A DNA stretch of 63,214 bases, filler included, from Collodictyon triciliatum (lineage: Eukaryota): assembly GCA_043381765.1 (NCBI GenBank). It is 8 parts of 8 records of this genome, joined end to end, with 100 filler letters (N's around TTAATTAATTAA, not from the genome) between each part and the next. Parts side by side here need not be neighbours in the genome. Positions count along the whole stretch, not along the records: positions 33,733 to 42,058 come from JBHJMP010003476.1; 7 more parts are not named here. One strand, 5' to 3'. A program made the translations under genes and the position numbers. Shown here one piece after another: positions 8,327 to 51,667 of the stretch; positions within the stretch are counted from its first letter, which is position 1; the number at the start of each line of letters is the position of its first letter. The notes under the pieces were generated by a model. It was not told where the DNA came from. It saw only the letters and a list, made by a program, of their open reading frames with translations, and did not search any database.

Positions 8327-8426
8327 NNNNNNNNNNNNNNNNNNNNNNNNNNNNNNNNNNNNNNNNNNNNTTAATTAATTAANNNNNNNNNNNNNNNNNN
8401 NNNNNNNNNNNNNNNNNNNNNNNNNN
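8327..8426. other. Artificial scaffold spacer N44-TTAATTAATTAA-N44 (12-mers also at 16813, 25248, 33677, 42103, 50522, 58940)
   Basis: Identical 100-nt block seven times; the 12-mer places stop codons in all six frames. Confidence 0.97.
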
Positions 8427-16768: not shown

Positions 16769-16868
16769 NNNNNNNNNNNNNNNNNNNNNNNNNNNNNNNN
16801 NNNNNNNNNNNNTTAATTAATTAANNNNNNNNNNNNNNNNNNNNNNNNNNNNNNNNNNNNNNNNNNNN

Positions 16869-25203: not shown

Positions 25204-25303
25204 NNNNNNNNNNNNNNNNNNNNNNNNNNNNNNNNNNNNNNNNNNNNTTAATTAATTAANNNNNNNNNNNNNNNNNNNNNNNNNNNNNNNNNNNNNNNNN
25301 NNN

Positions 25304-39311: not shown

Positions 39312-41253
39312 ATTTTTTTTTAGAGAAAGATGTAGCATATTTCGGAGGATTGAAAGAACTTTGCTGAGTATATTATTAGTGCTGTTTAAGTCTCTTGTCA
39401 AGAATACACTTTGTTTGCTTTCTGGGCGGTTGCATTCTTTACATATGAGACATCTATACGCTTTTTTGTATTTCCTTTCAGTTTCTTATATCCCAATTCT
39501 TTTTCGCAGTTGTGGCACATCTTGGATGTTCTAAATTCATCTATACACTGCTTCAAAACGCTTGGATAGTATTTTTCGTAATCTTCTTCCGATTGTTGCC
39601 ATAAAATGCTTCATCGGACATTTTCTGCTCCAGCCTCCATACGCCAGTACAACATTCTTGCCAAATGTCTTTTCGATTCGGTCCATAAACAACTCTTCAC
39701 TTCTCTTTTATTAGCATACTGTCTCCATCTCATCTTTCGAAAAGTTACTTGTTCATAAAATCTGGAAAATTCTATCTGGTATCTTGATTTCATAGATACA
39801 TATATTCGAATTTTTTCATAATCGACCGTACATGAATTATGTTTACTCAGTTCTATCTCTAAACCGATTAAAGATACTCTTAATGTCTCAAACCGCTGAT
39901 TCTCTTCAAAAGTCACGGCACCAAAAGAAATAGCACTTTGTGAATATGTTGCCATGCATATCCCCGAAGCATTGTACTTTTCTTTTTTTCTCGCGCAAGA
40001 GTATTTTGTGATTATTAAGAGATTTGCTATCATGTCTTGTTTGATGTGCCGTGTAACGTAATTTCTTACCTGTCTCATTCACCATGTAAAAAAAATAAAA
40101 TAATTAAACTTACCTGCGTCCACTCAAACTATTTTTTGTCGCTAATAATGATAACTGCTCTTCGGAAAGTTCATCTATATAGACACATTCTTGGGGGGGG
40201 GGGGGGGTTTTTTGGGTTTTTTNNNNNNNNNNGGGAGGAAGGGGGTTGATTTTGGAATTTTGCATTTGAGATACCTTTCTTTTCAAACAATAATGACACC
40301 GCCAAGCCGTCTGTTTGTATCATGTATTTAAAATTGTAGTCTCTTTGACGTAAGACCCTTTTCTTCGTTTCAAAGAACTTATCTCATAGTACATCTTTGC
40401 ATCCTGATATATTATTCAGCAATAATTTTTTTCTGGTTGATACTAATAGACCTATCAAACATGCAGTATCTAGAGTATTATGCCATGGTATATTGGCAGT
40501 TCTTACAGAGATTGGTAGAAACTTTTTGGTTCAAATGTCCTCAAAAATGCGACTCATGTAAATCAGACATGGTATGTTCTTGTTTGGATTGACTTTGATG
40601 TCATATTCGATACCTTTTACAATATCGCTGGGAATGATATGATGCAAATGTATTTTTAGCCCATCCTTTGTATTGTTCTGGTATTTCGAGTTTCTTGAAG
40701 ATGGCTTTTTTTTAACTTTCGTAACCCTGCCTTTTTAATATCTTCCGTAACATTCTCATCTTTAGGAACTGTTTGATTTATAAATTGCAGTAACCTCTTT
40801 GCAAAATGCCTCTTAATGTTATTATGATAAGCTGTTAACATTTTCTTCGCCAAGTACGGTAATACGTGAGACAGTCCAACCAACGGAAAGCGTTCTTCTT
40901 GGGACAAAAGGAATCGAAAATAATAGAGATAAAAAGTCATCATGTCGATTCTCATTTATGGTTTTTTTTTCATAAAACTTGCTGGTCTGTCTTGTGAAAT
41001 AATTCCGACTGTCTTTAAAGCGTACGAAAAAAAAACTTTCATCGATTGTTGTGACTTGTTGTGATTTCAATATGTAGCATCTTGCAAACAGATAAGTGTC
41101 GGTAATCAAATTATGACACAATAAAATCGTATCGTTGATTTTATCATAGTCATCCACATTCTTTACAATCGACTTTTGAGATGTTTTCACATTTCGATAG
41201 GGTGGTTTTACAGACTTTAGATTCTCAGACTCAAGACGTTTTCTTTTCTTCAT
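39312..41253 (-). pseudogene. Fanzor1 (eukaryotic TnpB-like RNA-guided endonuclease), disrupted by frameshifts and stops
   Basis: Reconstructed across frames: MKKRKR..YRNVKTSQKSIVKN..CHNLITDTYLF; MLTAYHNNIKRHFAKRLLQFIN; YDIKVNP..LIYM; RTANIPWHNTLDT; FKYMIQTDGLAVSLLF; RuvC-I IV*VDAGK (D 40118-40120); KLRYT; FYEQVTFRKMRWRQY; LAYGGWS; RuvC-II IDEFRTSK (E 39536-39538); CHNC..CKEC zinc finger; RuvC-III RDLNSTNNI (D 39390-39392). Exact C-terminus uncertain. Confidence 0.92.
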
Positions 41254-41942
41254 CTGAAAGTATTTGTTTTACTTTTTCTTTAGAAAACTACCGAGTTTTC
41301 AATTTTAATAAAACTTTAGTAAATCTAATAAAAAACAACTGCACAAAATCAATTATGTAAAACTAAGCATCTACCGAGACTCTCAAAATATGCACATTGT
41401 GGAAAACAAACACAAATTTTTTTTTTTTAAAAAAAAAAAGTGATTTGAGACAAAACGCTGAGAGCCGATTCGGCGAGTTCGAAAGGACGGCCGTATAGCC
41501 ATTGCGACTGAAAGCCAATGTATCGGCCCCAAACAACATGATTATCGCCGCAAGTGTGGGCAGTATGCTTTTTTGAAATACATGTTTGGTGGCAGGTTTA
41601 TAGGGTGGGTTCTGTCTGGAAAGGCAAAGGCTTGTTTGTCATTTTTAATATTTTTGATATTATTACATAAATGGGAAATGAAGCATAAATTAATTATATG
41701 AATAGAATGAGATTTTTTTTATGTATTTTTAACCTTATTATATTACTAATCACACTATTATATTATTCAGGTCGTTTCTTGGATTGTTTTACATATTATT
41801 TTTTTTTTTTTTTTGCGAAGGCAGCTTGACTTATTGATTAAATCAGCATCACGGTCGAACGGAGTCAGAACGCCGCGTTGCTATGAAGCAAAAAACACTC
41901 GCAGACTCACCATTCACCACAGATCAGCCAACCCCGGAAGCC

Positions 41943-42042
41943 ATGAGCACTGTAACATCTGCTGCCGACGCCACCGTGAAAACTCTGGCCAGAGAGTTTC
42001 TGTCCTTTGTCGACGCTTCTCCTTCGCCTTTCCACACTGTCG
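41943..42042 (+). CDS. DNPEP: First exon of aspartyl aminopeptidase (peptidase M18); remainder lost at scaffold end
   Basis: MSTVTSAADATVKTLAREFLSFVDASPSPFHTV then a GTAAGT donor; matches the M18 N-terminal F(L)xFxxxSPSPFH(A)V motif. Confidence 0.85.
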
Positions 42043-42551
42043 GTAAGTATTGCAACGTNNNNNNNNNNNNNNNNNNNNNNNNNNNNNNNNNNNNNNNNNN
42101 NNTTAATTAATTAANNNNNNNNNNNNNNNNNNNNNNNNNNNNNNNNNNNNNNNNNNNNTTTTTTTTTCTTTTTTTTTTTTTTTTTTTTTTTTGCACAATT
42201 AGTTCGTTCCCGTGATCCTTTTGCTTGGCGGGATGCTCAAGAAGCCTGCTTTGAGAACCTCTTGGCTTCTGTGAGCTTATGTGTGAGTTCTCGGTTATGT
42301 AACCCACCCTGCGAGGTCTCGTTTTCGTGGTAGGAGACGGAAAAGCAGACCGTGTATTTTTCTTTTCTTCATTTTTCCGAGCTTCTTCTTTCTTGTTCAT
42401 ACCATATTTTCTCTTCCTTTTGCGGAAAATTCCTAAGCAGCAAGTCCGCACGGATTGTTAGATCGGCAGATCGCTTTGCATCCACGGCAACTTTTTTCGG
42501 AGGCAGATCGAGAGCACATCGCAGGAGAAAGACTCGAGCTGGCAGAATAAG

Positions 42552-42980
42552 ATGGCCCCAAACTACACTCTCACCTACGTTTACTGCGCACTCCTTTTTG
42601 TGGGAGGTAAGTACCTCTTCTCAATGTTTTTCTGTTTTTTTTCTGTTTTTTTCTGTTTTTTCTTCTCTCTCTCTGCAAAAGGGCTTTGCGAGCAAGTCCC
42701 TTCTGTGCTTGCACTGAGCAGCCGGCAACATTAACCCTGCACAGGACTCATGGGCTTCTTGAAGAAGGGCAGCGCCGCCTCGCTGGTGGCTGCATCGGCG
42801 TCTGCGGGGGTCATCGCGCTCGCCGCAAGAAACAACCGCCGCGACTTTGTCATCGCACTCACCTTCGCAATGTCGCTTTTCATGGGCTTCCGCTACGTAA
42901 ACTCCTTCAAGTTCATGCCTGCCGGCCTCGTTGCGCTTCTAAGCCTCGCATTGTGCCTCTTCCACGTCTCCTCCGTCTAA
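42552..42980 (+). CDS. TMEM14: TMEM14 family small membrane protein, two exons
   Basis: MAPNYTLTYVYCALLFVG-GLMGFLKKGSAASLVA...MGFRYVNSFKFMPAGLVALLS. Carries the GG.MG..KKGS..SL and R...S.KFMPAGL signatures; one GTAAGT..CAG intron. Confidence 0.9.
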
Positions 42981-50477: not shown

Positions 50478-51667
50478 NNNNNNNNNNNNNNNNNNNNNNN
50501 NNNNNNNNNNNNNNNNNNNNNTTAATTAATTAANNNNNNNNNNNNNNNNNNNNNNNNNNNNNNNNNNNNNNNNNNNNATCTACTCGGATTTTATATGACG
50601 AGGCAAAGTCTGTTTATGTTAGGATGCCTCCCCAAGCCACGTTTGTCGACATGGTTCATATTTTCTCTGACTTGCTCGACCAAAAGATTCAGCAGCAGCA
50701 GTGGCCGAGATAAGCTGAGGATTTTCATTTCCCCTTCATTTTCTTGCAATTTTTCTATTTCGGATAATAAACTCGTACTGGTGTTTGATTATAGGCGAGT
50801 GTGAATAGCAGTAGAGCAGGAAATGTGTTTTCTTAATATGGAAATTATGATTATAATATAAAATATAATATCTATGGAAATTTGAGATAATTTGGTTATA
50901 ATATATTAAATCATTATATTATTTTTAGTATATAAGGGTAATCACTTATATTAACGTTGTTCACTTCTTCCACCCGCGCAATTCAGTATTATCGGTTCTA
51001 TTTTCGCAACATAAAGCCGTTACTGGCGGGTTTGGAATCTGGCACGAGCGCATAATTCAAGGAAATGTAACGAACATCCGAAAGTGTAATAATTACATCA
51101 TATGATACCAATCATGCACCAAAAATGACTAAAATGCAGCCCTAATTAATCCATTTCCCGTGATGGAAAGTGCAATCACCAAGCCAAGCCTTCCATCACA
51201 GAAAATTGCAGAAGCGCTTGGCCTACTTTGGCCGATGATCAAAGCCTCTTTGCTTTCTCTGCTAACCAAACCAAAGGATTCGTTGGTTCTGTTCGATTCT
51301 GCTTGATTCCTTTCAGCCACCCACTCTTCCGAAAAGCGAGTCTCAGCCAGTCGCTTTTCCCTCGGCTTTGAAAGACCTTGGGCGGCTGCGAACGGCCGTG
51401 ACCGTGGCTGTGCGAATGAGTCAGAGAAGCCATAAAGCAGAGTCAGGTGGTGGTTGTATCTTTCCCCTCCTGTCCACTGGGTCGCTTCCCAGCGCCATAT
51501 TTGTTGGCGGCTCGTGCTGTAATGATGGGAAGTTGGGCGAATTCTTTCATTCTTTCTTTCTTTCTTTCTTTCTTTCATTCATTCATTCATTCATTCATTC
51601 ATTCATNNNNNNNNNNNNNNNNNNNNNNNNNNNNNNNNNNNNNNNNNNNNNNNNNNNNNNNNNNNNN

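Follow-up and report, generated by a model that had tools for sequence, protein, structure and literature searches.

A broken Fanzor1 gene copy, probably of a multi-copy repeat family and either decayed or in part mis-assembled, in a Collodictyon triciliatum genome assembly

We analyzed a stretch of 63,214 nucleotides (nt) from the genome assembly of Collodictyon triciliatum (GCA_043381765.1), hereafter the window, which joins eight parts of eight records end to end. In one of these parts (JBHJMP010003476.1, window positions 33733-42058), the minus strand at 41253-39162 most probably holds a Fanzor1 gene copy that has decayed, or was in part mis-assembled, and that belongs to a multi-copy, Fanzor-only repeat family with a unit of about 2.6 kb. 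Fanzor1 proteins are the eukaryotic branch of the TnpB/Cas12 superfamily and are carried by mobile elements. Membership in this family, the order of the gene pieces, the lesions that interrupt them, the survival of the catalytic codons and the presence of many related copies without several of these lesions were all established directly. The locus had been proposed earlier, from the sequence alone, as a hidden Fanzor1 gene split among four open reading frames (ORFs), a proposal to which we refer below as the original prediction.

The four ORFs named in that prediction exist, and all lie on the minus strand (40822-41268, with an ATG at 41253; 40656-40955; 39611-40078; and 39162-39485). They were joined with a profile of 667 positions made from 66 full-length relatives, which were taken from the matches to a middle stretch of the locus, P0003 (window 40704-40234, 157 amino acids (aa) in one frame, with two TGA codons read as X). 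A frameshift-aware search had been proposed as a check of the locus, and in our own alignment of this kind the minus strand from 41256 to 39255 aligned in order with profile positions 4-632 at 475 bits. Twelve controls, namely the plus strand, a reversal of the sequence, four shuffles, and three other regions read on both strands, stayed at 30-62 bits. Eleven stop-to-stop pieces, each scoring 8.8-53.3 bits, matched the profile in strict order over positions 4-612, and the predicted collinearity of the joined frames thus holds. A six-frame hmmsearch with the same profile recovered the minus strand at 41256-39339 in three frames (E 1e-50, 3e-39 and 5e-13) and found no second copy in the window. 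When referring to these results, it should be considered that the relatives were picked through the middle stretch only, so that the match at about profile positions 186-346 is partly circular; the matches of the N-terminal (4-183) and C-terminal (340-612) parts do not depend on this selection. The joined reading comprises 663 codons along the alignment path and 30 more to the TAA at 39164-39162, which places the protein nearer to 690 aa than to the roughly 600 aa first suggested. Profile positions 4-380 precede RuvC-I and form a long N-terminal/REC half, as in Fanzor1. The pieces and motifs, all on the minus strand, are as follows.

39162-41253, minus strand: whole broken Fanzor1 reading, from the ATG at 41253-41251 to the TAA at 39164-39162, by frameshift-aware profile alignment.
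41014-41256, minus strand: N-terminal piece with a basic KKRKR start; profile 4-81, 32.7 bits.
40695-40946, minus strand: second piece, in another frame; profile 103-183, 53.3 bits; 75% identical here to the relative P0015.
40246-40725, minus strand: three same-frame pieces split by two TGA codons, including TDGLAVSLLF; profile 186-346; 37.9, 31.4 and 51.3 bits.
40314-40285, minus strand: TDGLAVSLLF.
40109-40123, minus strand: RuvC-I VDAGK; Asp codon 40120-40118 kept, with D in 65 of 66 relatives.
39978-40091, minus strand: piece after RuvC-I; profile 389-428, 28.2 bits.
39692-39877, minus strand: piece at profile 427-488, 44.7 bits.
39549-39707, minus strand: piece at profile 484-538, containing YGGWS, 52.3 bits; sole match in the PDB, PpFz1 1114-1156, E 0.5.
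39641-39627, minus strand: YGGWS; Gly codon 39638-39636 kept, with Gly in 64 of 66 relatives.
39506-39544, minus strand: IDEFRTSKMCHNC, RuvC-II; shifted Glu codon 39538-39536; PF07282 at E 0.013; PpFz1 1162-1184.
39339-39479, minus strand: piece with the second CxxC and RuvC-III RDLN, 30.5 bits.
39443-39432, minus strand: second CxxC.
39395-39384, minus strand: RuvC-III RDLN; Asp codon 39392-39390; R, D, N and N columns kept.

A GT-AG intron of 44 nt at 40113-40070, directly after VDAG, was considered and rejected. The profile aligns FYMVNETGKKLRYT across this interval, and the break there is thus a frameshift in a run of eight T.

The assignment of the locus was judged by profile matches; on these matches, a grouping with Fanzor1 rather than with Fanzor2 or TnpB is supported. 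Against 1.84 billion representative proteins, P0003 gave 479 matches at E<=1e-3 and 69 at E<=1e-10, the best at 1e-40 with 55% identity, and many of the matched proteins are 560-780 aa long and aligned at about their residues 200-350. PF07282 was present at E<=0.01 in 6 of 10 scanned matches (above the Pfam cut-off in 3 of these). In the PDB, a 634-aa relative, P0005, matched SpuFz1 (9e-37, residues 14-607), PpFz1 (7e-34) and GtFz1 (7e-16) and no other entry at E<=0.001. A profile of 40 full-length relatives, among which PF07282 was matched in 16, gave the same three proteins at 5e-104, 5e-103 and 1e-80. Two chains of LaTranC, near 2e-3, were all that followed, and up to E<=1 the PDB yielded neither a Fanzor2 nor a TnpB chain. 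P0003 itself has a single PDB match, to PpFz1 (E 0.0023 over 113 residues, PpFz1 741-853), and two C-terminal pieces of the window weakly match the same chain, in order, at 1114-1156 (E 0.5) and 1162-1184 (E 1); the pieces 39611-40078 and 39162-39485 have no Fanzor match in the PDB. We therefore uphold the predicted Fanzor1 identity, because the 40-relative profile matches strongly only the three solved Fanzor1 proteins and because the reading has the long N-terminal half.

The closest partial relatives of the window reading are P0015 (137 aa, 75% identical), P0157 (331 aa, 59%) and P0004 (291 aa, 55%). P0157 begins with an identical MKKRKR N-terminus, aligned from 41253, and both P0157 and P0004 are assigned PF26935 (DUF8286) in a precomputed table. 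In a tree of 67 sequences, the window reading and these three form a subclade of four with an SH-like support of 0.93. A word-indexed search with the 70-aa zinc-finger piece gave no match, nor did scans for the locus in viral contigs and in metagenome contigs.

Once the frames are joined, the motifs quoted in the original prediction are found in the order that it gave (TDGLAVSLLF, VDAGK, YGGWS, IDEFRTSKMCHNC, CxxC and RDLN). The available part of Bao and Jurka 2013 (PMC3627910) describes a superfamily motif, D-X(125,275)-[TS]-[TS]-X-X-[C4 zinc finger]-X(5,50)-RD, and two further conserved residues of Fanzor1, G500 and E536 of SPu-1-1p. The joined reading contains this motif with spacers of 194 and 12 residues (Asp at 40120-40118; TS at 39529-39524, then K-M; CxxC at 39517-39506 and 39443-39432; RD at 39395-39390), and both further residues are present (Gly 39638-39636 and Glu 39538-39536), with their correspondence to SPu-1-1p taken from the motif context. 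The RuvC-II Glu lies six residues ahead of the first Cys, in a column that is E in 61 of 66 relatives. As far as the accessible text of two reports goes (bioRxiv 10.1101/2023.08.09.552727; PMC10530073), the RuvC-II Glu of Fanzors has moved toward the C terminus and stands six residues ahead of the zinc finger, and this shift is common to Fanzor1, Fanzor2 and some TnpBs. The original prediction had taken this residue as a mark of Fanzor1; the residue is indeed there, but as it is shared so widely, the Glu alone is insufficient for a Fanzor1 call.

At least 85% of the 66 relatives agree in 30 columns, and the window copy retains 26 of them. The catalytic D, E and D are among those retained, and the claim that all three catalytic acidic codons survive therefore stands. 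In the four lost columns, Tyr has become Asn, one Pro Ser, Trp a stop and another Pro Ala. It had also been pointed out that GGW occupies the place where GDW is usual, which is correct; PpFz1 has GNW at the same place, so the Asp of GDW is not essential to the family. The account of the departures was nonetheless incomplete, as the RuvC-I Pro is also replaced by Ala (DAG), a third TGA precedes VDAGK, and a gap of 10 N lies at 40223-40232. The near family as a whole seems to have DAG, since the consensus of the loose ends of other copies reads V-G-V-D-A-G-K, while P0004, the closest full relative in the RuvC-I region, has DPG.

Contigs of four public runs (three studies; one organism and three metagenomes) were compared with the element at a likeness of at least 85%, and the comparison of insertions and deletions (indels) with these other copies rests on the 12 of 110 indel rows listed. 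No public run contains more than 0.06 of the sampled words of the stretch, and no RNA run is among those listed. The four runs hold 403, 77, 304 and 208 contigs on the element, with up to 19 contigs of one run over a single place. In run X3, 25 contigs are at 99% likeness or better, 109 at 95-99%, 170 at 90-95% and 99 under 90%. This depth and divergence are those of a diverged multi-copy family, and the suggestion that the lineage has a Fanzor1 family of its own agrees with the many diverged copies in the four runs and with the subclade of four. The settings from which the family is thus known are one run of a named organism and freshwater and subsurface metagenomes. In other copies, 40179-40260 is exchanged for 14-37 ordinary letters, so little is missing at the gap in the window.

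As assembled, the window copy has nine frameshifts, three in-frame TGA codons and the 10-N gap, with no single open frame, and it cannot make the protein. The lesions, in the order of the gene, are listed here.

40962-40970, minus strand: run of nine A (gene strand), with a frameshift within 41014-40946.
40706-40713, minus strand: frameshift in a run of eight A.
40651-40656, minus strand: frameshift, one base too many, in a run of five A; other copies minus one base in 7 contigs of 4 runs.
40531-40533, minus strand: in-frame TGA; of the 66 relatives, 27 have G here, 14 have N and 6 have E, and the closest relative, P0015, has Gly.
40384-40386, minus strand: in-frame TGA in the place of a Trp that is almost invariant (65 of 66 relatives); TGG in 16 contigs of all 4 runs (40384 T>C).
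40193-40232, no strand: assembly gap, 10 N at 40223-40232, with a G15 run and T runs alongside.
40132-40137, minus strand: frameshift in a run of six A; frame of QKIVxVDAGK versus the upstream frame.
40124-40126, minus strand: third in-frame TGA, one codon ahead of VDAGK; aligned to the G of IVGVDPGK in P0004, with Gly in the consensus of other copies.
40088-40095, minus strand: frameshift in a run of eight T.
39983-39989, minus strand: frameshift, one base too many, in a run of seven A; other copies minus one base in 3 contigs.
39706-39710 (about 39708), minus strand: frameshift, one base missing, no long run; other copies plus G in 15 contigs of 4 runs.
39544-39548 (about 39545), minus strand: frameshift, two bases missing, no run; other copies plus TA in 4 contigs.
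39462-39467, minus strand: frameshift, one base missing, in a run of six A; other copies plus A (at 39460) in 2 contigs.

Homopolymer runs of 6-9 bases thus contain six of the nine frameshifts and a run of five contains another, while two are away from runs. At five or more of the nine sites, other copies carry a frame-restoring indel of the correct sign (+A at 39460, +TA at 39546, +G at 39708, -1 at 39983 and -1 at 40656). The nonsense codons are all TGA, with no TAA or TAG, two at Gly sites (GGA to TGA) and one at a Trp. This pattern is probably due to chance together with mutation bias, and the three codons are best read as plain nonsense changes, given that the three closest database relatives read Gly, Trp and Gly at these places. 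We infer that the lesions reflect real decay rather than assembly error.

Several points weigh against the reading of the locus as a decayed Fanzor1 copy and should be considered when it is used. The curated libraries respond weakly to single pieces: Pfam, searched with nine of them, gave only PF07282 (Cas12f1-like TNB domain), in one piece and at E 0.013, and NCBIfam gave no match with five, a weakness that explains why the gene is hidden. P0015, P0157 and P0004 are all fragments on short contigs of public assemblies. RuvC-I reads DAG, where Pro is found in 61 of 66 relatives and where DPG is called "highly conserved" and a "dominant signature" of Fanzors in the available part of bioRxiv 10.1101/2023.08.09.552727; as 5 of the 66 relatives are also without this Pro, DPG can be regarded as a strong tendency and not as an absolute criterion. 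As for the setting of the gene, no transposase domain was found in the scanned ORFs of the 8.3-kb contig, no convincing inverted repeats or element ends around the gene, and no omega-RNA, with no Rfam match at E<=1 within 38800-42058. Among the contigs of the four runs, each of which covers at most a few hundred bases of the element, no intact full-length copy was seen, and single contigs carry indels of their own (minus 2 at 39794 and minus 1 at 40424). Four of the frameshift sites are not informed by other copies among the indel rows listed. The frameshifts in homopolymer runs and the N gap with its G15 run mean, moreover, that errors of assembly or sequencing, or a chimera assembled from the repeat family, could account for some of the damage. 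With 26 of 30 conserved columns retained, the gene could also have been active until recently or still be intact.

The last of these points leads to the alternative that survives best, namely that the organism has an intact gene and that a fragmented short-read assembly, in which repeat copies were collapsed or mixed, introduced the frameshifts and perhaps also the stops. The number of frameshifts within runs, the N gap inside the gene and the preserved columns with all catalytic codons speak for it, as does the state of other copies, in which the frame is restored at five or more frameshift sites and one stop reads TGG, often in the majority of contigs. The three TGA codons, on the other hand, are base substitutions and not length errors, and the two frameshifts at about 39708 and 39545 are away from runs. 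The contigs at 85-99% likeness are other copies and therefore say nothing on the window locus itself. Taken together, we regard an intact gene at this locus as improbable. A broader version of the idea, that the repeat family still has intact and expressed copies and so represents an active Fanzor1 with DAG and GGW, a compact natural variant of these nucleases from a lineage not yet mined, with the window copy perhaps itself intact, is a tentative possibility to which we give somewhat more weight.

It is very unlikely that the locus is instead a Fanzor2 gene, a TnpB gene of prokaryotic origin (a contaminant, for example) or part of a giant virus that has integrated. The shifted Glu and the zinc finger would suit Fanzor2 and some TnpBs as well, and one of the nearest clusters in a protein atlas is 50% viral, from Nucleocytoviricota, which we take as a lead only. 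The profile of relatives, however, reaches three Fanzor1 chains in the PDB at 1e-80 or better and neither Fanzor2 nor TnpB at E<=1, the reading of about 690 codons has the long N-terminal half typical of Fanzor1, the prokaryotic families of NCBIfam are not matched by the five pieces searched, and WD40-repeat exons lie, together with microsatellites, on the 8.3-kb contig of the locus. An older viral origin of the family is possible. That TGA is read as sense, or that translational frameshifting on A-runs allows expression of the gene despite its appearance, is hardly credible: all three stops are TGA and one falls at the Trp column, but the other two stand at Gly of the closest relatives, so no single reading fits the three, other copies carry TGG at the Trp site, ORF statistics showed no signal, TGA-specific or otherwise, when TGA, TAA or TAG was taken as a sense codon, and nine shifts of both signs, two of them off runs, are unlike a programmed signal.

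The boundaries of the window copy were approached through the sequence around the gene and the junctions of other copies, with three features of interest.

39149-39161, plus strand: candidate arm of a terminal inverted repeat (weak), 13 nt, perfect complement of 41754-41766, abutting the stop codon.
41754-41766, minus strand: candidate arm of a terminal inverted repeat (weak), pairing with 39149-39161, about 500 nt upstream of the ATG.
41458-41620, minus strand: upstream non-coding segment common to other copies, represented in contigs of each of the four runs; neither an RNA family match nor an unusual fold.

The two arms of the 13-nt inverted pair are the only perfect copies in the window, and since 78 of 300 shuffled contigs yield some comparable inverted pair, it should be treated as a lead only. 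No target-site duplication was seen on reading the flanks. In other copies, 41278 is joined to 41458 (one X3 contig, which skips 179 nt) and about 41606-41647 to 41744-41756, so the window copy has extra upstream sequence relative to them. The skipped stretches, 41279-41457 (with a T12-A11 run) and about 41619-41750, may be insertions in the window copy or deletions elsewhere. Contig cover is absent at 38900-39000 and almost absent at 41829-41900, and in X3 it fades below about 39300; we take this as a lead only and did not use it for the element ends or for a 3' truncation. Folds at the ends of the gene are unremarkable (z -1.39 for 38950-39250; -1.15 and +0.54 for the others), and neither a tRNA nor an Rfam family was found across the 63-kb window. 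In the available part of PMC10432273, GtFz1 and two Fanzor2 loci are reported without inverted repeats and transposases, and a Fanzor-only unit is therefore not unusual.

Within its 8.3-kb contig (33733-42058), the Fanzor1 copy lies between a WD40-repeat gene and the start of another gene. The WD40-repeat gene is seen as exon-like ORF pieces on the minus strand at 36131-38928, with its start about 230 nt from the Fanzor1 stop codon and an acidic Asp/Glu tail at about 35657-36115. One of its pieces has 71 PDB matches at E<=1 (best, CFAP52 at 1.6e-4; NSA1 at 0.045), and a word-indexed search with a WD40 exon gave no match. By its N-terminal pattern the gene presumably resembles NSA1, the similarity being weak. 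On the other side, a plus-strand open reading with an ATG (41884-42056) is cut at the contig end; it has no Pfam match and presumably resembles the N-terminus of M18 aspartyl aminopeptidases.

The remainder of the window consists of separate contigs placed end to end, so only 33733-42058 gives genomic context for the Fanzor1 copy. The joins (8327-8426, 16769-16868, 25204-25303, 33633-33732, 42059-42158, 50478-50577 and 58896-58995) each consist of 44 N, TTAATTAATTAA and 44 N; the parts between them shrink steadily (8342, 8335, 8329, 8326, 8319 and 8318 nt), and neighbors across this spacer, which has stops in all frames, are not genomic neighbors. The large ORFs of the window contain no Pfam domain. 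Among them, a 931-codon open frame on the minus strand at 30554-33346 is rich in Pro, Gln, Ser and Thr with a TQPQ repeat, and is probably a disordered protein or no gene at all, while 60900-62912, with 60% G+C, is open in several frames of both strands and has tandem repeats of 22 to 72 nt in its 3' part. The window is rich in microsatellites and homopolymers, with 38 tandem-repeat rows at a score of at least 100, including (GTAT)60 at 33733-33971 and (TCTT)28 at 37883-37993. On another contig, the plus-strand ORF 42735-42980 has a pattern that may be that of the small membrane protein family TMEM14.

By analogy, we infer that intact members of the family would act as RNA-guided nucleases like SpuFz1. 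On the strength of family membership, and as the accessible descriptions of SpuFz1 and other Fanzors have it, the 3' end of the element would be transcribed into an omega-RNA, and an intact protein would bind this RNA and, so guided, cut matching DNA beside a short adjacent motif, using one RuvC site composed of the RuvC-I Asp, the shifted Glu and the RuvC-III Asp beside the zinc finger.

Fanzors correspond, in eukaryotes, to TnpB and Cas12, and they are under development as compact genome editors. A further Fanzor1 family, which we see here in a decayed copy, adds one more case to those known but no new principle. The locus provides a record of a multi-copy, Fanzor-only family whose RuvC-I signature is the variant DAG, and it illustrates how gene callers miss such genes when their frames are broken; intact copies, if they exist, could be assayed as nucleases. 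Our search of the literature, which did not extend to the supplementary tables of host species in Fanzor surveys, found nothing on Fanzor pseudogenes. In a survey of eukaryotes and their viruses, 3655 unique Fanzors were counted (PMC10530073, available part), and this organism may already be listed in the supplementary tables of published surveys.

When compared with known systems, the best solved match of the relatives' profile is SpuFz1 of Spizellomyces punctatus (PDB 8gkh; 5e-104, profile 9-612). SpuFz1 and the window reading share the order of N-terminal/REC half, RuvC-I Asp, G-x-W, shifted Glu, C4 zinc finger and RuvC-III RD. The window copy differs in being broken (nine frameshifts and three stops) and in having DAG for DPG, and the identity is low, such that its own pieces do not reach SpuFz1 directly by phmmer. 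GtFz1 of Guillardia theta (PDB 9cer), the third profile match (1e-80), is aligned only with the C-terminal half of the profile (304-592). Its locus is reported without inverted repeats and transposase in the available part of PMC10432273, and the window locus may be alike. Fanzor2 proteins (e.g., mimivirus ApmFz2) and TnpBs of the IS607 type share with the window the RuvC fold, the shifted Glu, the zinc finger and the RD, according to the partly available sources, yet they give no match at E<=1 with the relatives' profile. Fanzor2 is also shorter and, as the accessible text of PMC3627910 describes, linked to IS607-type elements with TnpA, whereas the window's contig has no such gene. PpFz1 of Parasitella parasitica (PDB 9cf0) is a distant relative and, unlike the window copy, intact and biochemically characterized; it is the only solved protein that the window pieces match directly (741-853, 1114-1156 and 1162-1184, in order), and it has the same IDEFRTS as the window, with GNW where the window has GGW. 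Closer to the window, P0004 has DPG in place of DAG, and P0157 shares the MKKRKR start.

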